DNA of 64,000 nt from Floricoccus penangensis (GTDB lineage: Bacteria > Bacillota > Bacilli > Lactobacillales > Streptococcaceae). The notes under the pieces were generated by a model, which ran no database searches, was not told the DNA's origin, and saw only the letters and a list, made by a program, of their open reading frames with translations. Of this stretch, positions 2,935 through 50,882 are shown one piece after another. Each line of letters begins with the position of its first letter. The first letter of the stretch is position 1. The stretch lies in NCBI RefSeq assembly GCF_001832885.1, contig NZ_MKIQ01000001.1, positions 37,017 to 101,016 of the forward strand. The letters are read 5' to 3'. A program made the translations under genes and the position numbers.

Positions 2935-5274
2935 TTATTGTTTTTTCTTTGAAATAATTATAAGTGATGAAGTTACAAGTATAAGACCTGTTGCTATGAT
3001 TACATAATTGTTTACATCTCCCGTTTTTGGTAAATGTTTACCTGAATTTCTTTTTGGAACATTAGAATTGTTATCTTCATTTGAACTACTGTTAATTGTG
3101 TTGCTAGACTCACTTGTTTGTGTTTGACTCTGTGGATCCTGTGCTTTATTTTTCTTTACAGCATCGTTTACTATATTGTCAATTTCATCTTTAGATATAG
3201 AGTTTTTAATTGCAAGAGTGAATTCATCTTTTTGTTTTTTATTTAAATTCTTAAGGTCATTTATTTCTTTGCTTGTTTTTTCTTTTAGTTCTGCTAATTC
3301 TTGCTCAAGTGATTTTATTTTATCATCTTGACTAGCATTCTTTAAAATAGCACTAATAGAATCATCAGAGTTTGCTTGTTTAATCTCCTCAATATATTTA
3401 GCTTTATCTGTTTCATTGATAATTTTTAAATTATTAATTTCTTTTATTGATTCTAATTTTTTATTTTCAAGTTTAGCTTCAGCTATTATCTTATTGATAT
3501 CTTCAACTGAGTTGGAAGATTGTATGTTATTAATATATTTTGTTTTAGTATCATCAGTCAGAGAAGAAAGTTCATTAATTGTTTTTACTGCATTTTCTCT
3601 ATAATCTAAGACTTCTTTTTTAATAGGAATGATTCTTTCATAAGGGAAGGGTTCTTTCCTATCTTCTGATATTTTTCCTTCATATTTTAAATAGTTAGTG
3701 AAAACTTCATCCATTGAAGGGCCTTCTTCACGAGCACCACCAAGCATGGTATAACCATCTCCACCTGCTGCTAAGAAATCATTTGTTGTTAAGTAATATG
3801 TTTTTTCTAAATTAACATCTTCGAACTGTTTTGATTGTCTATTAAGAAGTTGTACTTTGAGGACGCGTTGACCAGGTGTTTTTTCTTCAGGAACTTCACC
3901 TTGTAAATTTGAATCAAAATACACTTTTACAGAAGATGATACTTGCAAAAATCCACCATTTCTATCAAGAGCAGGTTGCCCTTTTTCATCTAGAACGATA
4001 TTTCCATTTTCATCTTTTAAAGCAATTGATCTTAGAGAATGTTCAAACATGTCATATAGTTGTTGACCATTTACTTCAATTTGTGAAATAGTATTTCCGA
4101 AAGGTAGGACTGATAAAATGTCTCCTTTTGTTATAGTTCCTTCTTTAATTGATTGACGTATCCCACCACCATTTATTATTGCAAGATCACTTTCATGTGT
4201 AAAGCCAGTTTGTCCATATTGATAAAGAGCATCACCGATTAGATTCCCAAGATTAGTTTCACGAGTTCTGACCATAGCACCTTTTCCTTCAAGGTTTACA
4301 GTATTTCCTTCTAAAACTACTTCAGACATATCGTTATTGAAATCACTAGCAACTTGGTTTACAAAGTTGTCAACGTTTGTATTAGCAGGTAATTCTTTTG
4401 CCTCTGAAAATGGTATTAATTTTGCATTTATTGAACTATCGGTGTCAGAATATTTAGCTTCAATTTCTCCTACATTATTTAAGTAGTTACCTGTCTGAGC
4501 TAAAAGAACATTTCCATATTTTTCGCCATTTGGTAATTCTGTATGCGAGTGACCATCGATTATTACAATTTTGTCTGTTGGATGGTTTTTACTCAATTCT
4601 TTGGCAAGAGTTCTACTTTGCCATTCTGTTGGTGTTGTTGCATCTATTCCTAGATGACTAAGAAAAATAAATACATCTGCTTTTCCCTTAAGTTCTTTCA
4701 TATATTTTTCAGCAGTAGGTATTGGATCTTCAAAGGTTACTCCAACGATATTATTTGGATGGGTTTTAGTTGTAGTTTCTGGAGTTGTAAGTCCAATGAT
4801 AGCGAATTTTTTGCCATCTTTCTCTATAATTTTATAGGGATCAAAGGATTGTTGACCATTTTTATATACATTTGCTGATACAAGTGGTGTATATTCTTTT
4901 AATTTCATTGCCTGGTCATATCCAAAATCAAATTCATGATTTCCTGCAGTAGTAGCATCATAAGGGATCATAGTCATACCTTTAGCCATTTCAATTCCTT
5001 TGCTATTATTAGAAATTGGAAGGCCTTGAACTGAGTCACCAGCATCTAGCATTAATGTTGGATTAATTTGATCTTTTAAGCTTTTCAATCGAGCTAAGCC
5101 GATTGATTTATTCTTTTCATCAAATTGCATACGACCATGCATATCATTTGTATGTAAAATAGTAAATGAGAATTCTTCAGCTAAGATTGTATTAGAAAAT
5201 AACAAAGTTGCTGAGCCAATTACTACTATGCCTATGCTTTTTAGGTACTTACCTATACGTTTTTTCTCTTTCAT
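2935..5274 (-). CDS. Cell-wall-anchored 5'-nucleotidase / UshA-family metallophosphoesterase (LPXTG), 779 aa
   Basis: Signal peptide, then metallophosphatase motifs (ILHTNDMHGR, GNHEFD) and a 5'-nucleotidase C-terminal domain. Long K/E-rich coiled-coil spacer. Ends with LPKTG + hydrophobic helix + KKKQ sortase signal. Confidence 0.85.
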   Translation of the reverse strand: MKEKKRIGKYLKSIGIVVIGSATLLFSNTILAEEFSFTILHTNDMHGRMQFDEKNKSIGLARLKSLKDQINPTLMLDAGDSVQGLPISNNSKGIEMAKGMTMIPYDATTAGNHEFDFGYDQAMKLKEYTPLVSANVYKNGQQSFDPYKIIEKDGKKFAIIGLTTPETTTKTHPNNIVGVTFEDPIPTAEKYMKELKGKADVFIFLSHLGIDATTPTEWQSRTLAKELSKNHPTDKIVIIDGHSHTELPNGEKYGNVLLAQTGNYLNNVGEIEAKYSDTDSSINAKLIPFSEAKELPANTNVDNFVNQVASDFNNDMSEVVLEGNTVNLEGKGAMVRTRETNLGNLIGDALYQYGQTGFTHESDLAIINGGGIRQSIKEGTITKGDILSVLPFGNTISQIEVNGQQLYDMFEHSLRSIALKDENGNIVLDEKGQPALDRNGGFLQVSSSVKVYFDSNLQGEVPEEKTPGQRVLKVQLLNRQSKQFEDVNLEKTYYLTTNDFLAAGGDGYTMLGGAREEGPSMDEVFTNYLKYEGKISEDRKEPFPYERIIPIKKEVLDYRENAVKTINELSSLTDDTKTKYINNIQSSNSVEDINKIIAEAKLENKKLESIKEINNLKIINETDKAKYIEEIKQANSDDSISAILKNASQDDKIKSLEQELAELKEKTSKEINDLKNLNKKQKDEFTLAIKNSISKDEIDNIVNDAVKKNKAQDPQSQTQTSESSNTINSSSNEDNNSNVPKRNSGKHLPKTGDVNNYVIIATGLILVTSSLIIISKKKQ

Positions 5275-18566: not shown

Positions 18567-18600
18567 AGATATCCTTTCTGGTAGAGATATTTGTTTGTAT

Positions 18601-18701
18601 AGTCACTTAAAAATAGATTAATACATCGTTGACTCATCTCGATGAACGCTAGTTCTATCATCAATTCGTCGCCTTGTCTTATTTCTATTTTAATCAACTA
18701 T
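18601..18701 (-). repeat. BOX-like dispersed repeat, short form (copy A)
   Basis: Reverse complement is near-identical to 46667..46764 (1 mismatch in about 98 nt). Confidence 0.8.
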
Positions 18702-18744
18702 AATTCGAATACTGAGAGGTTGTTTCATCTTTTCTTGGGTATAG

Positions 18745-18925
18745 AAAAAGCCCTTGAGATTACTCAAGGACGTACAATTGACGTGGTGCCACCTTTATTC
18801 ACAGAAAATATCTGTCTCTAAAAGCTATAAGGTTGCTAGCCATATCTTACGTCACTTTTTTCTAATAAATTAGAAACTTATCTCAATGCATTCTCTCAGC
18901 TTACTGAATGCTCTCTTTTTCTAGG
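18745..18925 (-). promoter_or_regulatory. T-box riboswitch leader of hisS-aspS, with promoter TTGTTT-N17-TATAAT (minus strand, about 18958..18930)
   Basis: Minus strand carries the T-box core AAAGGTGGCACCACG (fwd 18782..18798), a stem-I region with an AGAGA motif, and the terminator CCTTGAGTAATCTCAAGGGCTTTTTC (fwd 18745..18770). Confidence 0.7.
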
Positions 18926-18974
18926 ACTCATTATAACAAAAGCATTATCATAAAACAATGATAAAATAGGGGCT

Positions 18975-19535
18975 TTAGGTATTTTTTACAGATAATATAC
19001 CTCTAAATGAATTAATGTTTACTAATCCGACAATGACTAGGGAAACGATTGGGATGAAAAAGGCAAAAACAAAGGCCAGAGCAAAACAACCATAGAAATT
19101 TTTAACCCATTTATTAGTTCTAGGTAAAGTATTTTCCATATCAGGATTATCTCTACATACTTGTTTGTTTAAAACAAAGAAACTTTCCACCCAAAGAATT
19201 TGGAGAAGAAGATAAGTTATCATAGGTAGTGTGGCATTGGTTTTTTCACTAATCTAAGAGGTCGTGAAAGGAACTAAGGTAAGTAGGAAGAGCCAAATCC
19301 CATTTAATAGGAAAACTTTATTTGATATGATTTCGGCATTCTTAAAGGTATTATGGTGAGAAAACCAAAAAAGATAAATTAAGAAAAAACTAACGATGTA
19401 GGCAAAAAGTACATGCCACTCAGAAAGTAGGTTACTTAATTTTACTCCATCAGGTGAATGAAGTTCTAAGACCATAATTGTTGCAGCTATTGCAATCATT
19501 GCATCTGTAAATGCTTCTAAACGTGATTTATTCAT
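18975..19535 (-). pseudogene. DUF1211 (TMEM175-like) membrane protein interrupted by a single in-frame TAG
   Basis: ORFs 19254..19535 and 18975..19223 are in the same frame, separated only by a TAG (fwd CTA 19254..19256) and 10 sense codons. The N-terminal FTDAMIAIAATIMVLEL is the DUF1211 signature. Combined length about 186 aa, which is family-typical. Confidence 0.6.
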
Positions 19536-23555: not shown

Positions 23556-24437
23556 ATGCAAAAAATAGCAATACTTTCTGATGTTCATGGAAATGTGACT
23601 GCTTTACAAGAAGTTGTCAATGATGTAAAGAAAGAAAAGTGCACTGAAACATGGTACATAGGAGATTTGATGAGGCCAGGTCCTGGTGTCAATGATTTAA
23701 TTGAACTTCTTAAGTCAATAAATATGACTACTTTTGTTCGTGGTAATTGGGATGATGTGGTCCTTGATTCACTAAAAGGAATATCTCAAGGAAAGAAAAT
23801 TTCTCCCGATAATCCTGAGATTGTATATGTGACTATCTTAAACAAATATGTTTTAGAAAATATCAGTCCTGAGAACTTAAAGCTTCTGGAAGATACCAAA
23901 TTAAGAGAGGTTAAAGAAATTGAGGGTTTGAAGATTTCTTTGACACATAATTTACCACATGATGCATATGGAGGGGATCTTTGGATTACAAATCCAACTG
24001 AAAATTTTGATAAGCTATTTACAAATGAGGAAGGTCAAATTGATGAGGATATTGATATTGCAGTGATTGGTCATACCCATCGTCAACTTATGAGATATTC
24101 TTCAAAGGAACAATTGATAATAAATCCTGGGTCTGTTGGAATGCCTTTTTCTAAGAGGGAGAGGTTTCAGGAGAATTTAGATGCTCATTATACAATTTTA
24201 GAGATTGAAAACGGTAAAATTTGTGGTGTAAATTTTAAGAGGGTTCCTTATGACCATAATGTTGAACTTAAACTGGCAAAGGAGAGAAATCTGCCTTATA
24301 ATGAGTTGTATAAATTACAGATGGAGACTGGTGAGCCTCATATTCACGATGTTGATATGCTAATTGATGTCAATGAAAAATATGGATATAGGGAGCAAGT
24401 CATGGATTTTCTGGATGATTTGGATTTAGATGATTGA
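23556..24437 (+). CDS. Calcineurin-like metallophosphoesterase, 293 aa
   Basis: ILSDVHGN, GDL, GNWD and GHTH motifs. Confidence 0.7.
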   Translation: MQKIAILSDVHGNVTALQEVVNDVKKEKCTETWYIGDLMRPGPGVNDLIELLKSINMTTFVRGNWDDVVLDSLKGISQGKKISPDNPEIVYVTILNKYVLENISPENLKLLEDTKLREVKEIEGLKISLTHNLPHDAYGGDLWITNPTENFDKLFTNEEGQIDEDIDIAVIGHTHRQLMRYSSKEQLIINPGSVGMPFSKRERFQENLDAHYTILEIENGKICGVNFKRVPYDHNVELKLAKERNLPYNELYKLQMETGEPHIHDVDMLIDVNEKYGYREQVMDFLDDLDLDD

Positions 24438-24447
24438 GGTAGAATGT

Positions 24448-25266
24448 ATGAAACATAAGATAGCGATTATTTCTGATGTTCACGGTAATGTAACTGCTTT
24501 ACAAGAAGTTGTCAAGGACGTAAAGAAAGAATGTTGTACAGAAGCTTGGTACATGGGTGATTTGATAATGCCTGGCTCTGGTACAGATGATTTACTTAGT
24601 TTGTTAAAGGAAATAAATACGACAACTTACGTTTTAGGTAATTGGGATTCTTATTTATTTGAGGGTAATGAACCTGATAGACATGAGGATCCTCAGTATG
24701 TATATTTTTCGACATTAATTGATTATGTAAAACAAAATATGGGTACTGAAGGCATTGATTTTATCAAGTCATGGCCTATGCAAGTCATTAAACATGTGGG
24801 CCCATTGACTATTTCTCTTAGTCATAATCTACCAGATAAAAATTATGGCCATGATTTGAGACCAATGAATAACACTGAAAACTTTGAAGAGTTATTTGCA
24901 GCAGATGATTCAATTGATATAGCAATTGTTGGTCATACACATAGACAGTTTATGCGCCCTACTACGGGAGGTCAGATAGTTTTAAATCCAGGTGCAGTCG
25001 GGCAACCATTTTCGGATCGAGCAAAATTGTTTTCTGATTTAAGATCTAGGTATTTAATTCTTGAAATTGATGAAACAGGTCTTGCTGATGTTGATTTCAG
25101 ACGTGTGCATTATGATCGACATGCTGAATTTGAACTTGCTAAAATACGTAAGTTACCTTATATTGAATTGTATGAAAAGCAAATGGATACAGGGGTTACT
25201 TATACCCATGACCGCGATGTATTAAAAGGTCTTAATGACAAGCATGGTTATAATTCATTTGAATAA
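24448..25266 (+). CDS. Calcineurin-like metallophosphoesterase paralog, 272 aa (tandem duplicate)
   Basis: MKHKIAIISDVHGNVTALQEVVKDVKKECCTEAWYMGDL matches MQKIAILSDVHGNVTALQEVVNDVKKEKCTETWYIGDL of the upstream gene. RBS GAGGT. Confidence 0.7.
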   Translation: MKHKIAIISDVHGNVTALQEVVKDVKKECCTEAWYMGDLIMPGSGTDDLLSLLKEINTTTYVLGNWDSYLFEGNEPDRHEDPQYVYFSTLIDYVKQNMGTEGIDFIKSWPMQVIKHVGPLTISLSHNLPDKNYGHDLRPMNNTENFEELFAADDSIDIAIVGHTHRQFMRPTTGGQIVLNPGAVGQPFSDRAKLFSDLRSRYLILEIDETGLADVDFRRVHYDRHAEFELAKIRKLPYIELYEKQMDTGVTYTHDRDVLKGLNDKHGYNSFE

Positions 25267-31297: not shown

Positions 31298-32704
31298 TTA
31301 TAAGTTGCTATTGTTCTTCGAATTTTTATCATTATTTCGTTTTGTGGCATCATCTTTATTTTTAATAAGTTCTTCAAAATCAATACCAGTTGCATCTTTA
31401 ATTGCTTGGAAAGTTCGATCCATACCTATTTTTCCTAATTTTTCGATTCGATTTGCTTCAGCTTGCGCTGCTAATTCAATTTGTCTTGCTTCAATTTCTG
31501 CTTTAGCAATTTGACGAGCTTTATTTGCCTCAGCTTCCTGAACAGCAACGTAATGTCTTGTTTCAGCTTCTTTACGAAGAAAATCAGAATTGAACTCTTT
31601 TTCTCGTGCTTCTGCTTTCTTTTCTAGAAGCTCAATTTTCTTTTCTTGTTCTTCATATTCTAATTTCAACTGCTCCATTTTAGATTTTAGCTCAATTTGT
31701 GCTTTCAAAATTTCACGATCTTTTATAATATTAGCTTTTTCAATTTCTTGCATTTTTATCAAATTAGCTTGTTCAATTTGACCATCTTTCTCTATATTAG
31801 CACGTTCGATTTCACGATCTTTTTCTATATTAGCACGTTCAATTTCTTGATTTTTTATTATATTTGCTTGCTCAATTTCTTTGTCCTTCATCATATTAGC
31901 TTTTTTAATTTCACTTTTTACACGTTCTTGGACTTTTGCAATTTCTTCATCTAAATTTATTTTTATTTCTTGAAGTGCTTGTTCTTTTCGTTCTTCAGCA
32001 ATTTCTATGCTTCTCTTAATTTCTTCAAGCTGTGCCGCTTTATCATCTTCGGCTTGTTTAATACGGGTTTCAAGATCGGCAGAAGAGTATTCAAGCTGTG
32101 CCTTTCTTTTGTTTTCAACTATCTGAAGTTTAGTGATTGCATCTATGTAACCATTGCCATCATTAATTTCTTTTATTGAAAGTGATAGTAATTCGATTCC
32201 CATTTTTTTAAGTTCAATTGAAGCCATAGCTTGTATCTGTTCAATTATATATGATTTATCTGTATATATATCTTCCTCTGTCATTGTACTTAAGACAGCT
32301 TGTATCTGTTTTTCAATGATTTCCTTAGCATCTTCTTCAATTTTTTTTGAAGGCTCTCCTAGATAATGCTCTACAGCATTTTTAATATACTTGTCTGTTG
32401 TTCCGATTCTTACCAACGCTGAAGCAGTAGCTTGAAAAGGTATCCCTCCATCCATATATATTTCATTGACTTCAAGATCAATTTTTTTAGTTAGAAGGCT
32501 GAGCGTATGTGCTTTCTGTAAAAATGGAACTATATATGTTCCTCCATCTGTAACTACCCTGACTCCCTCTTTATTTTTAAGATTTTTCCCCGAAACTACA
32601 AGTGCTTGATTTGGTTCTCTCTTTACATAAGTTGCTACAAGTAATACTGCAATTAAAATAAAAATGATTAAGATTACCATTAATACAATTAAAATTTTTG
32701 ACAT
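31298..32704 (-). CDS. Flotillin-like SPFH/band-7 protein (FloT/YuaG-type), 468 aa
   Basis: Start moved to ATG 32704 (RBS GGGGGAAAAT). N-terminal TM, SPFH domain, and long E/A/K/Q coiled-coil C-terminus typical of flotillins. Confidence 0.8.
   Translation of the reverse strand: MSKILIVLMVILIIFILIAVLLVATYVKREPNQALVVSGKNLKNKEGVRVVTDGGTYIVPFLQKAHTLSLLTKKIDLEVNEIYMDGGIPFQATASALVRIGTTDKYIKNAVEHYLGEPSKKIEEDAKEIIEKQIQAVLSTMTEEDIYTDKSYIIEQIQAMASIELKKMGIELLSLSIKEINDGNGYIDAITKLQIVENKRKAQLEYSSADLETRIKQAEDDKAAQLEEIKRSIEIAEERKEQALQEIKINLDEEIAKVQERVKSEIKKANMMKDKEIEQANIIKNQEIERANIEKDREIERANIEKDGQIEQANLIKMQEIEKANIIKDREILKAQIELKSKMEQLKLEYEEQEKKIELLEKKAEAREKEFNSDFLRKEAETRHYVAVQEAEANKARQIAKAEIEARQIELAAQAEANRIEKLGKIGMDRTFQAIKDATGIDFEELIKNKDDATKRNNDKNSKNNSNL
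31725..31925 (-). repeat. In-frame 33-bp tandem repeat (about 6 units) inside the flotillin gene, encoding EIE(R/Q)ANI(I/E)K(D/N)x 11-mers
   Basis: DNA units ...tattagcacgttcgatttcacgatcttt... reiterated; protein KDKEIEQANIIKNQEIERANIEKDREIERANIEKDGQIEQANLIKMQEIEKANIIKDREI. Confidence 0.7.
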
Positions 32705-35349: not shown

Positions 35350-35378
35350 TTATTCACTCCTATCCATGTTTGTTATGG

Positions 35379-35596
35379 TTGATTAAAATAGAAATAAGAC
35401 AAGGCGCTTCGCTGTGCTACGATGTCCATAGAACTTAAATTGCTAAAGCAATTAGTTCTAATGGCGACGAATTGATGATAGAACTAGCGTTCATCGAGAT
35501 GAGTCACTACGCCTTGCTCCGATGTCGATTATACTATAATAAGCAAGCTTATTAGTATAAATCGCAACGATGTATTAATCTATTTTTAAGTGACTG
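35379..35596 (+). repeat. BOX-like dispersed repeat, long form (copy B) with two extra internal modules
   Basis: Same termini as the other copies (TTGATTAAAATAGAAATAAGACAAGGCG ... CGATGTATTAATCTATTTTTAAGTGACT), with 60-nt and 59-nt insertions relative to the short form. Confidence 0.8.
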
Positions 35597-35608
35597 TAAA
35601 ATAAGAAA

Positions 35609-35640
35609 CTCATCAATTTGAAGTTGATGAGGATCTTTTT
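35609..35640. terminator. Terminator CTCATCAAtttgaagTTGATGAG flanked by T-runs (terminates the ABC-F gene on the minus strand)
   Basis: 8-bp stem; T-rich on both sides. Confidence 0.6.
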
Positions 35641-43805: not shown

Positions 43806-44060
43806 TAATAAGAGCGAAGAAAAGTAGCATTTGGAATGATTTCAGAGAATTGGCGGGTAGTGCGAGTCAATATCATAAAAAGTGTGAATGGGCTTTGCTT
43901 AAAATCATGATTTGAAAAAATAAAAATCACGGTAGTCACCGATATCAGACAATTGTTTTGTAAGACAATTAGAGGGAATAGATATGTTCCGAATTGTGGT
44001 GGTACCGTGTCGTGAGACGCCCGCATATAGATTATTAATCTATATGCGGTTTTTTGTTTT
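43806..44060 (+). promoter_or_regulatory. T-box riboswitch leader of trpS
   Basis: T-box core GAATTGTGGTGGTACCGTGTCG (43991..44012) overlaps the 5' arm of the terminator CGCATATAGATTattaATCTATATGCGGTTTTTTG (44019..44056). Upstream AGAGA-containing stem-I region. Confidence 0.75.
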
Positions 44061-45304: not shown

Positions 45305-46621
45305 ATGAAGAATTCTCAGGAGCTAAATCTTAGAGAAATTTCAAATTTTGCAGCAAATATTCATTCGAATTTTAATGAAGGTCATGATTTTGAACATATC
45401 CAAAGGGTAGTGGAGTTAGCTAAGGAACTTTTACAAGATTATCCACAGGCAGATGAATTTTTAGTTTTAGCAGCATGCTATCTCCATGATACTTATGATG
45501 AAAAGTTATTTGATGATAGTATCAAACAAAAAGAAGCTGTAAAAGAATTTCTAGAGTCTTTAGGACTTGGTGATGATATTATTAGGCAATTATTTTCTAT
45601 TATTGATAATATGAGTTTTGCAGCCAGTCTGGATGGTAAGGCACCTCTTGATCTTAATGGACAAATAGTACAGGATGCTGATAGGATTGATAGCCTTGGG
45701 CCGATAGCTGTTACACGTGCTCTACAATTCGGCTGGTATCATAATATTCCTCTTTATAATCCAGAGGAAGTAGCTCAGACTTTTACGTCCAAGGAGGATT
45801 ATCGTAAGGCAGATAGTAGCACCATAACTCACTTTAAGGAAAGATTATTTCTTTTAAAGGATATGCTTAATACAAAAAAGGCTCAGGATATGTGTTTTGA
45901 GCGTGATAAATTTATTCGTGATTTTGTAGCAGCTATTGAAGCAGAGTGGGTTATGGATAATCCTGACTTAATAAATGATGAGAAATTAGTAAAAATAAGA
46001 GATTTTGCCTATAACATTCATTCCGAAATTAATGATGGTCATGATTTTAATCATATTAGACGAGTAGCTGGTTTAGCTCAAAAAATTCTAGAGACTTATT
46101 CACATGTGGATAAGTTTACAGTCCTAGCTACGGTTTATCTACATGATTGTTATGATCAAAAGCTTTTTGTGGATAGTTTGGAACAAAAAGCTAAGGTAAT
46201 CGACTTTCTTTCCAAGCTAGAAATTGAACAAGATATAATTGATAAGATAATCTATATTATCGACAATATGAGTTTCTTTGCTAATATCGATGGTCAAAAG
46301 AAATTGAATTTAGTTGGACAAATCGTTCAGGATGCGGACCGTCTTGATAGTATGGGAGCTATCGCTATAAATAGAGCTCTTGAATATGGATGGTCACATA
46401 GTCGTAAATTATATGATCCAAGTGTTAAGCCTCGCCAAGATTTATCAAAGGATGAATATCGTAATTCAGAAGGAACTACAATAAATCATTTTTATGAAAA
46501 ACTATTTTTATTAAGTGACAAGTTGAATACTGAAGAAGCGCGTGAACTTGCAAAAGGTCGTAATCAGATAATGCATGATTTTGTCACAGGTATTGAAAGA
46601 GATTGGATTGAAGTTAGCTAA
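45305..46621 (+). CDS. Tandem HD-domain phosphohydrolase, 438 aa
   Basis: Two homologous ~215-aa halves, each with the H...HD...D pattern (GHDFEHIQRV...YLHDTYD and GHDFNHIRRV...YLHDCYD). Confidence 0.65.
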   Translation: MKNSQELNLREISNFAANIHSNFNEGHDFEHIQRVVELAKELLQDYPQADEFLVLAACYLHDTYDEKLFDDSIKQKEAVKEFLESLGLGDDIIRQLFSIIDNMSFAASLDGKAPLDLNGQIVQDADRIDSLGPIAVTRALQFGWYHNIPLYNPEEVAQTFTSKEDYRKADSSTITHFKERLFLLKDMLNTKKAQDMCFERDKFIRDFVAAIEAEWVMDNPDLINDEKLVKIRDFAYNIHSEINDGHDFNHIRRVAGLAQKILETYSHVDKFTVLATVYLHDCYDQKLFVDSLEQKAKVIDFLSKLEIEQDIIDKIIYIIDNMSFFANIDGQKKLNLVGQIVQDADRLDSMGAIAINRALEYGWSHSRKLYDPSVKPRQDLSKDEYRNSEGTTINHFYEKLFLLSDKLNTEEARELAKGRNQIMHDFVTGIERDWIEVS

Positions 46622-46625
46622 ATAA

Positions 46626-46653
46626 AAAGGTGTGGAAAATCCACACCTTTTTC
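46626..46653 (+). terminator. Terminator AAAAAGGTGTGGaaaatCCACACCTTTTTCG
   Basis: 9-bp GC-rich stem plus T-run; bidirectional. Confidence 0.8.
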
Positions 46654-46666
46654 GTTTATTATATAG

Positions 46667-46764
46667 TTGATTAAAATAGAAATAAGACAAGTCGACGAAT
46701 TGATGATAGAACTAGCGTTCATCGAGATGAGTCAACGATGTATTAATCTATTTTTAAGTGACTA
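46667..46764 (+). repeat. BOX-like dispersed repeat, short form (copy C)
   Basis: TTGATTAAAATAGAAATAAGACAAGTCGACGAATTGATGATAGAACTAGCGTTCATCGAGATGAGTCAACGATGTATTAATCTATTTTTAAGTGACT. Confidence 0.8.
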
Positions 46765-46777
46765 TAAATTAAAAATT

Positions 46778-50365: not shown

Positions 50366-50481
50366 GTTATCCTCCTAGATTATATGATGCTTAGCAATGA
50401 TTTTATCAGTATTTTCAGAATTATTCAATGCTAATTAGTAGACAACAAAAAAACTTCAACAATTGCTGAAGTTTTATGAGA

Positions 50482-50553
50482 TAGTCCGTACGGGATTCGA
50501 ACCCGTGTTACCGCCGTGAAAAGGCGGTGTCTTAACCCCTTGACCAACGGACC
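50482..50553 (-). tRNA. tRNA-Glu (UUC)
   Basis: Minus strand reads GGTCCGTTGGTCAAGGGGTTAAGACACCGCCTTTTCACGGCGGTAACACGGGTTCGAATCCCGTACGGACTA. Cloverleaf with anticodon UUC. Confidence 0.9.
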
Positions 50554-50570
50554 AGGGTAAATATATAGTG

Positions 50571-50632
50571 GTTTAAAATAGATTAATACTTTGTTTACTT
50601 GTCTTATTTCTATTTAAATCAACTACGACTGT
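50571..50632 (-). repeat. BOX-like repeat, minimal form (copy D: two termini only) between the two tRNA-Glu genes
   Basis: AAAATAGATTAATAC...GTCTTATTTCTATTTAAATCAACTA, same orientation as copy A. Confidence 0.6.
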
Positions 50633-50659
50633 AGTTGTGTATAAATCATTAAGATTTAA

Positions 50660-50731
50660 TAGTCCGTACGGGATTCGAACCCGTGTTACCGCCGTGAAAA
50701 GGCGGTGTCTTAACCCCTTGACCAACGGACC
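50660..50731 (-). tRNA. tRNA-Glu (UUC), second identical copy
   Basis: Identical 72-nt sequence. Confidence 0.9.
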
Positions 50732-50882
50732 AAAAACACTACTTGAATAGTATACCCCGATACCCTCTACTTTGTCAACAACTTTTTAGAAATTTTTTGT
50801 ATTTTTTTAAAAAAAGGTTTATAATAATTTTGTCTGCTCTGCTTTTTTATTTTTAAGCAATTTTGCAAGCGTATTCAAGTTC

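Follow-up and report, generated by a model that had tools for sequence, protein, structure and literature searches.

A probable Correia-type MITE with BOX-like hairpin modules in Floricoccus

Copies of the repeat in a 64-kb window

Between the terminator of an ABC-F gene and the start of a Cof/HAD gene, a 64-kb stretch of DNA (the window) from Floricoccus, a plant- and bee-associated lactic acid bacterium, carries a 221-nt repeat. Three further copies lie in the same window: next to a hemolysin-III gene, in the 5' leader of hisS, and between two tRNA-Glu genes. All four are intergenic and have imperfect inverted ends in common. A scan of the 64 kb with an element profile found no further copies in the window. 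The copies and the features beside them are as follows.

35376–35596, plus strand: long copy, 221 nt, modules A-X1-B-X2-C, with variant ends TGG...CTG; between the ABC-F terminator and the Cof/HAD gene start, both genes on the minus strand
35609–35631, bidirectional: intrinsic terminator, 12 nt from the long copy
46664–46764, plus strand: short copy, 101 nt, modules A-B-C, terminal TAG...CTA; between the bidirectional terminator at 46624–46652 and the hemolysin-III stop codon (46778)
46624–46652, bidirectional: intrinsic terminator, 12 nt from the 46664–46764 copy
18600–18700, minus strand: short copy, 101 nt, modules A-B-C, terminal TAG...CTA; within the 5' leader of hisS, past the T-box terminator and 33 nt before the ATG (18566)
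18763–18945, minus strand: hisS T-box leader, a sub-threshold match (50.3 bits, E 5.6e-10), with its terminator at 18750–18771
50566–50625, minus strand: minimal copy, 60 nt, degenerate, consisting of diverged A and C ends alone; in the spacer between the two identical tRNA-Glu genes
50480–50554 and 50659–50732, minus strand: tandem identical tRNA-Glu(UUC) genes, 104 nt apart, with the 60-nt relic in the spacer

The two 101-nt copies are separated by a single base (99% identity), and the sequence likeness between copies ends exactly at the element borders. A preliminary description of this DNA had listed four dispersed intergenic copies with imperfectly inverted termini, short copies that are 99% identical, and a minimal copy that keeps only the two ends. 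All four copies do exist and have such termini, the minimal one as diverged A and C arms; the earlier coordinates were a few bases off.

Across Floricoccus, we found copies of 60, 101, 161, 221–228 and about 285 nt. The basic unit is 101 nt long (TAGTTGATTAAAATAG...CTATTTTTAAGTGACTA), its terminal inverted repeats read TAGTTGATTAAAATAGA versus TAGTCACTTAAAAATAGA, and the 101-nt copies are 96–100% identical among themselves. With lengths of 60–285 nt, four copies in the window and at least seven in the F. tropicus loci, the repeat has the general features of a MITE, namely a size below 300 bp, no coding content and multiple copies. Both orientations relative to genes are found among the copies. 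The peptide of an ORF borne by the element had no homologue in the protein database, and Rfam, searched at gathering and at permissive thresholds, gave no family for the element.

Modular structure and predicted folding

The order and lengths of the parts in the long copy are A(30)-X1(56)-B(44)-X2(58)-C(33), located as follows.

35376–35405, plus strand: module A, left inverted-repeat arm and GACAAGGC core; aligns to the Correia left end
35406–35461, plus strand: module X1, 56 nt, a 23-nt leader and then an independent hairpin; missing from the 101-nt copies
35462–35505, plus strand: module B, central hairpin, present in every full copy
35506–35563, plus strand: module X2, 58 nt, a related leader and then a different hairpin
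35564–35596, plus strand: module C, right inverted-repeat arm

The two extra internal modules of about 60 nt that had been noted in the long copy correspond to X1 and X2. X1 is also found in F. tropicus loci L001 and L037, and X2 in F. tropicus L001, L007 and L037, the last of which has two. The 23-nt leader is common to X1 and X2, and the hairpins after it are unrelated. Longer copies carry one to three of these extra self-folding modules at fixed points of the unit, two kinds of hairpin cassette being used across three points of insertion. Three observations on the modules are added here. The borders of X1 (35406–35461) and X2 (35506–35563) are without TA duplication; the X1/X2 leader resembles the reverse complement of the A core plus the C core; and in F. 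tropicus an X2-type module lies inside the A arm (L037 3930–4214).

In the predicted folds, the 101-nt unit forms one long imperfect hairpin on the plus strand (dG −23.3, z −2.7), and the minus strand reaches a dG of −19.5 (z −3.3). The long copy is predicted to form an A/C stem around three independent hairpins, X1, B and X2 (dG −58.8, z −3.9), with a z of about −4 on either strand. Folding of the copies agreed with the hairpin formation that had been proposed, the predicted hairpins being stable (z −2.7 to about −4), and the modular organisation that had been described takes the form of an A-B-C unit with independently folding inserts X1 and X2.

Insertion sites and neighboring genes

Flanking genes were examined for ten full-length Floricoccus copies, and in every case the nearest gene end was 3–74 nt away. 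An intrinsic terminator stem lay at a distance of 0–13 nt in 5 of 11 copies (12, 12, 12, 10 and ~0 nt), and within ~55 nt for two more of the 11. The terminator-proximal insertions are located at 35597–35631 and 46624–46663 of the window, and at L005 3909–3947, L007 2175–2204 and L037 ~4215–4241 in the retrieved loci. This recurrence could reflect a target preference for terminator-proximal TA, or the survival of harmless insertions alone.

Two independent insertions, in the same orientation, separate a T-box leader from the start codon of an aminoacyl-tRNA synthetase gene, one at hisS (window 18600–18945, minus strand) and the other at pheS of F. tropicus (L004 1493–1842, minus strand); both T-box matches are below the Rfam gathering score (50 and 70 bits against 93). 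Both copies, the one at hisS being that of 18600–18700, must be co-transcribed with the gene. By likeness to CREE, a co-transcribed hairpin of this kind could serve as a target of RNase III or act as a stabiliser. The tRNA-Glu spacer that holds the 60-nt copy is presumably part of the tRNA precursor transcript. A consensus scan detected no promoter-like signal above chance inside the Floricoccus copies, and none of the Black or Snyder type; a TTGTCT-19 nt-TATAAT arrangement at the A end has a spacing outside the scanned range.

Several other features of the window were recorded. A TMEM175-like gene at 18975–19535 (minus strand) is split into ORFs of 82 and 93 aa in the window, is a single gene of 186 aa in several relatives, and comes to no more than 52 aa in F. 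penangensis ML061-4; the gene is probably in decay. A full-score T-box leader (43808–44027, plus strand, 101.8 bits) lies upstream of a class I aminoacyl-tRNA synthetase gene, whose product carries Pfam tRNA-synt_1b in relatives. Six head-to-tail periods of 33 nt with 61–74% identity, at 31677–31940, likely encode an 11-residue repeat in a minus-strand protein. A gene with an HD domain contains an internal duplication (45345–45873 versus 46002–46530, halves 66% identical), and its protein has 438 aa in the window versus a single annotated 222 aa in F. penangensis ML061-4 and F. tropicus. Two other segments, 23559–23753 and 24454–24648, lie ~900 nt from each other and are 77–78% identical.

Insertion polymorphism and TA duplication

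Loci of relatives were obtained by retrieving orthologues through conserved window proteins. The relatives include F. penangensis ML061-4 (CP075561.1), F. tropicus DF1 and several Logan/ENA contigs, as well as two more distant relatives, the 'Streptococcaceae bacterium ESL' genomes. Apart from the latter two, the window has 94–97% identity to these relatives (about 96–97% to the two named species), against 96–100% among the 101-nt copies, and it therefore falls within this species complex. An exact search with the left end, covering one genome per species, gave six copies in F. tropicus DF1 and a single element in a MAG of Moraxella.

The long copy is flanked by a duplicated TA at 35374–35375 and 35597–35598, the window reading ...TGT-TA, then the 221 nt, then TA-AAAT... 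at this site. F. penangensis ML061-4 has the corresponding empty site with a single TA, CCATGTTTGT-TA-AAATAAAA. The 46664–46764 copy has a duplicated TA at 46662–46663 and 46765–46766; its site is empty in five relatives (L024, L036, L037, L038 and L039), and the insertion amounts to +103 nt, that is, 101 nt plus TA. Comparison of filled and empty sites therefore gives TA duplication at 35374/35597 and at 46662/46765. The 18600–18700 copy is flanked by TA at 18598–18599 and 18701–18702. In six related strains or contigs the hisS site is empty and reads TTTGTTTG-CA-ATTCAAAT, whereas the window has TA, the 101 nt, and TA; the CA in place of TA in the sister strains speaks against a simple TA duplication at this site. 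Among the 11 Floricoccus copies, the flanking dinucleotide is TA at 18 of 22 ends and another at the remaining 4, with TA on both sides in seven copies.

Two of the five relatives whose 46664–46764 site is empty, F. tropicus DF1 and the SRR27755636 strain, have instead a different, five-module copy of ~285 nt that the window is without. Its order is A with an X2-type module inside, then X1, B, X2 and C, and it sits at the TA of 46622–46623, ~40 nt away from the 101-nt copy and on the other side of the terminator at 46624–46652. At the site of the 60-nt copy, F. penangensis L036 has an identical copy and F. tropicus L037 a diverged one; this copy between the tRNA-Glu genes is an old, fixed relic.

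Because each insertion at these empty sites consists of the element plus one duplicated TA, the repeat is a recently mobile MITE, and its presence or absence among strains that are 3–5% diverged likewise indicates recent mobility. The unrelated flanks, together with the three empty sites in sister strains, show that the copies are independent insertions; the possibility that they were parts of larger duplications, which had been raised against the repeat, is ruled out. Horizontal transfer across genera, between F. tropicus and the organism of the window, was also considered and dropped because the two genomes are ~96% identical.

Similarity to Neisseria Correia elements

Correia elements (CREE, NEMIS), the first bacterial MITEs described, shape gene expression in meningococcus and gonococcus. 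The link to them was exposed by BLAST of the plasmid collection with the Floricoccus element, in which a gonococcal chromosome was the sole match. The entry concerned, PLSDB NZ_CP119140.1, is a 2.17-Mb Neisseria gonorrhoeae chromosome filed as 'plasmid' (L019–L023), and 11 CREEs were extracted from 240 kb of it. A Correia-like end at L019 20003 reads TAGTTGATTAAAAC, as Floricoccus does.

We aligned a 101-nt Floricoccus copy with a 102-nt short CREE globally, end to end, and obtained 70/106 identities. The score of this alignment was 59 versus −11.8 ± 8.8 for shuffles (z ~8), the controls being mononucleotide shuffles against which palindromic sequences score z ~4.4 in reverse orientation. The ends correspond (TAGTTGATTAA in Floricoccus, TAGTGGATTAA in CREE), an identical GACAAGGCGACGAA block lies at the same distance from the left end in both, and near the right end GAGTCAACGATGTA corresponds to GAGGCAACGCTGTA. 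The Floricoccus element has the 26-bp Correia repeat end (TATAGTGGATTAA...): TA followed by TAGTTGATTAAAATAGAAATAAGAC and TA followed by TAGTGGATTAACAAAAATCAGGAC line up from their first base on, with identity at about three quarters of positions.

When a profile of four short CREEs was run over the window, the top two matches were exactly the two 101-nt copies, end to end (E 0.0025 and 0.035). In the reciprocal search, six Floricoccus copies made up the profile, which was run over 240 kb of gonococcal DNA, and short CREEs were the top matches (E 5e-4 to 0.1). These nhmmer matches were confined to the elements, with modest E-values (~1e-3) from 4–6 sequences per profile. In MAFFT alignments the families are colinear over 105–107 columns, and the consensus hairpin has 9 pairs with compensatory changes on both sides.

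The likeness extends beyond the alignment. CREEs duplicate TA, fall into size classes of 104–108, 153–157 and 69–73 bp, and are mobilised by an enzyme that is unknown (PMC2649163). The Floricoccus element also duplicates TA, its short form has 101 nt versus 102 nt in CREE, and the ends of the two follow TAGT(T/G)GATTAA...ACTA. A whole-element hairpin, an intergenic location, minimal, short and long length classes, and an unknown transposase are further points in common. Unlike CREE, the Floricoccus element has a Gram-positive host of the Streptococcaceae, an AT-rich interior, long forms that arise from X1/X2 modules inserted at other positions, and a BOX-like modular build. X1 and X2 showed no similarity to the 50-nt IHF-site insert of long CREEs; IHF is not known from Firmicutes.

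CREEs have been described as unique to Neisseria (PMC2649163; PMC5039591). In the literature searched, we found no mention of Correia-like elements outside Neisseria, and none of repeats in Floricoccus. The restriction to this genus fails, given the Floricoccus host and the related elements in the Moraxella MAG and in S. suis described below. Judged by these alignments, the homology between the Floricoccus element and the Correia element of Neisseria is clear.

Relation to BOX elements and to repeats of S. suis and Moraxella

The preliminary description had compared the repeat to pneumococcal BOX elements. The BOXA2R primer sequence led to real BOX elements in streptococcal contigs, and the BOXA1R and BOXA2R primer sequences were confirmed in PMC7291552. 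The 10-mer CAAGGCGACG of the Floricoccus element lies within the BOXA1R primer, at non-equivalent positions in the Floricoccus and BOX alignments. As a probe in viral contigs, the BOXA1R primer gave only a GC-rich chance match. Local alignment of the Floricoccus element with real BOX elements scored no better than shuffles, the global z against BOX A1C1 was 2.2–2.4, and a search of 100 kb of streptococcal DNA with the Floricoccus profile was negative for BOX. The termini are wholly different (TAGTTGATTAA in Floricoccus versus ATACTCTTCGAAAATC in BOX), and the Floricoccus element has neither the boxA nor the boxC terminal module. Compared with boxB, modules B, X1 and X2 scored at chance level apart from a 9-mer, GATAGAACT.

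In architecture the two are alike: both combine constant ends with internal modules that vary in number and fold independently, and both have similar size ranges, intergenic positions, TIRs, a TSD and hosts in the Streptococcaceae. They differ in that the Floricoccus modules are not tandem boxB repeats but two hairpin cassettes at three insertion points. Of the BOX comparison, the 10-mer in BOXA1R and the modular build remain; direct membership fails because the alignment to BOX is at shuffle level and the termini and modules are unrelated, a lack of alignment to BOX being the refuting outcome that the preliminary description had itself named.

A 102-nt element of S. suis pBM407 with TA/TA flanks (L051 378–479) was also compared, as a single copy. 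Its local alignment with the CREE core scored 48 versus 16.3 ± 2.3 (z ~14), with a z of 5.4 against BOX A1C1 and a global z of 4.3 against Floricoccus. This element is of the S. suis BOX type (RepSU1-like); its ends, TAGTC...GACTA, resemble the Floricoccus C arm and it aligns to the Floricoccus unit almost without gaps, but its core is much closer to Correia than to Floricoccus. When the CREE profile was run over 100 kb of streptococcal DNA, the best match was an A1C1 BOX (E 0.0011). Both the S. suis element and the pneumococcal-type A1C1 BOX (L013 1–91, a streptococcal viral contig) align with the CREE core (AGCCGCAGACAGTAC..AGTACGGCAAGGCGA). Since the Correia core aligns with both, the families appear to be connected through Correia, and through this connection the BOX idea is right indirectly only. 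This suggests, with moderate confidence and from few sequences, that BOX-type and Correia repeats are homologous; the literature searched held no statement of such homology.

The Moraxella element has 147 nt (L003 2622–2768, MAG contig JAUNUB010000074.1) and lies in the aroC/dnaG intergenic region. Its left end is identical to the Floricoccus A arm for 26 nt (27/28 from the terminus), its right end is Correia-like, and its interior is unrelated and GC-rich. It aligns with Floricoccus and CREE at z 6.5–7.8. The near-identity of a terminus across phyla could point to a shared transposase or to recent transfer.

Search for a transposase or parent element

Neither a transposase nor a full-length parent with matching ends was found in the window or in the relatives' loci, and the same search in plasmid, phage, viral-contig and metagenome collections was negative. 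BLAST of the phage collection with the element gave no match. The exact A-end had no match in viral contigs or metagenomes, and a 16-mer of the element end gave 11 chance matches in viral contigs, with no partner end. No repeated IS-like segments were found among all Floricoccus loci, and Pfam analysis of ten genes flanking the F. tropicus copies revealed no transposase.

Discussion

Taken together, the repeat is very probably a non-autonomous Correia-type (CREE/NEMIS) MITE whose hosts belong to the Floricoccus penangensis/tropicus complex. It inserts at a TA dinucleotide, which it duplicates. Weighing against this reading are the negative search for a transposase or parent, the modest E-values of the profile matches from few sequences, the high reverse-orientation scores of palindromes in the shuffle controls, the CA at the hisS site, the four flanks other than TA, and the promoter scan of the copies, which gave nothing above chance. 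The transposase would act in trans and recognise ends of ~16–28 nt; our guess for the enzyme would be a TA-specific DDE transposase of the IS630/Tc1-mariner type. The copies within the leader of hisS, ahead of the HAD gene and within the hlyIII 3' region would be co-transcribed with these genes, and the long hairpin added in this way could alter mRNA processing or stability, by analogy with RNase III at Correia elements.

An IS630/Tc1-mariner-type DDE transposase as the mobilising enzyme, with the repeat being a RUP-like MITE derived from an IS630-family IS, is a possible but doubtful reading. RUP and IS630-family elements duplicate TA, as is seen here at the empty sites, and terminal inverted repeats are present. 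RUP, a pneumococcal element of 107 bp whose TIRs resemble those of IS630-Spn1, is likewise a MITE in Streptococcaceae (PMC3049150). For RUP a putative parent, IS630-Spn1, is known; for the Floricoccus element there is none. In the window and the relatives' loci no IS630-like gene or long element with matching ends was seen, and forty years of Correia work have passed without a link to IS630 (PMC2649163). Considerably less probable is that the repeat belongs to the pneumococcal BOX family proper, with boxA/boxC ends and boxB-like modules. The variable number of self-folding internal modules, the Streptococcaceae host and the 10-mer shared with BOXA1R favour it, as do the alignment of BOX A1C1 and the S. 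suis element with the Correia core and the existence in S. suis of BOX-type families made from other modules (PMC3049150). Against it are a local alignment within the range of shuffles, the low global z, the failure of the Floricoccus profile to find BOX in 100 kb, the entirely different termini, the lack of relation of X1, X2 and B to boxB, and the non-equivalent positions of the 10-mer.

A host-selected, non-mobile cis-regulatory RNA, terminator-type element or sRNA gene family would account for the stable predicted hairpins and for the recurrence beside terminators and in two aminoacyl-tRNA synthetase leaders. We consider it very unlikely: presence or absence among strains 3–5% apart, with TA duplication, largely refutes it through the empty sites, the copies face either way with respect to genes, Rfam gave no match, the element is without its own T-tract, and the same genes work without the element in sister strains. 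Equally hard to sustain is single-strand HUH transposition (IS200/IS605 type), in which the TA duplication would be apparent, produced by a TA-ending target beside a TA-ending element. The strongly hairpin-forming element and the clustering of insertions 10–12 nt from terminator hairpins agree with it, but the long terminal inverted repeats with symmetric TAG...CTA, the TA on both sides of 7/11 copies, and an architecture shared with Correia elements, which are regarded as cut-and-paste-type MITEs, do not. That the copies are pieces of larger segmental duplications has practically no probability left, with nothing in its favour beyond the repeats themselves and both the exact end of similarity at the element borders and the three empty sites against it.

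The Correia-type MITE reading leads to a wider proposal, to which we give about an even chance. Correia elements, the BOX-type repeats of S. pneumoniae and S. suis, the Moraxella MITE and the Floricoccus repeat may form one cross-phylum superfamily of ~100-nt, TA-duplicating hairpin MITEs, of which the Floricoccus lineage would still be transposing. Comparison of strains with and without new insertions could in that case reveal the Correia/BOX transposase. We know of no identification of the enzyme that mobilises Correia elements, and the same holds for pneumococcal BOX.

The Floricoccus family breaks the view of Correia elements as a Neisseria-only feature, and it shows the Correia family to have a far greater age, or a far wider spread by transfer, than had been supposed. 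With moderate confidence, the Floricoccus element links Correia and BOX-type repeats, and it is an example of one MITE scaffold acquiring BOX-like hairpin modules. Insertion beside terminators, and between T-box leaders and synthetase genes, suggests effects on neighbouring genes. Insertions that differ among strains only 3–5% apart make Floricoccus a tractable system for finding the transposase.
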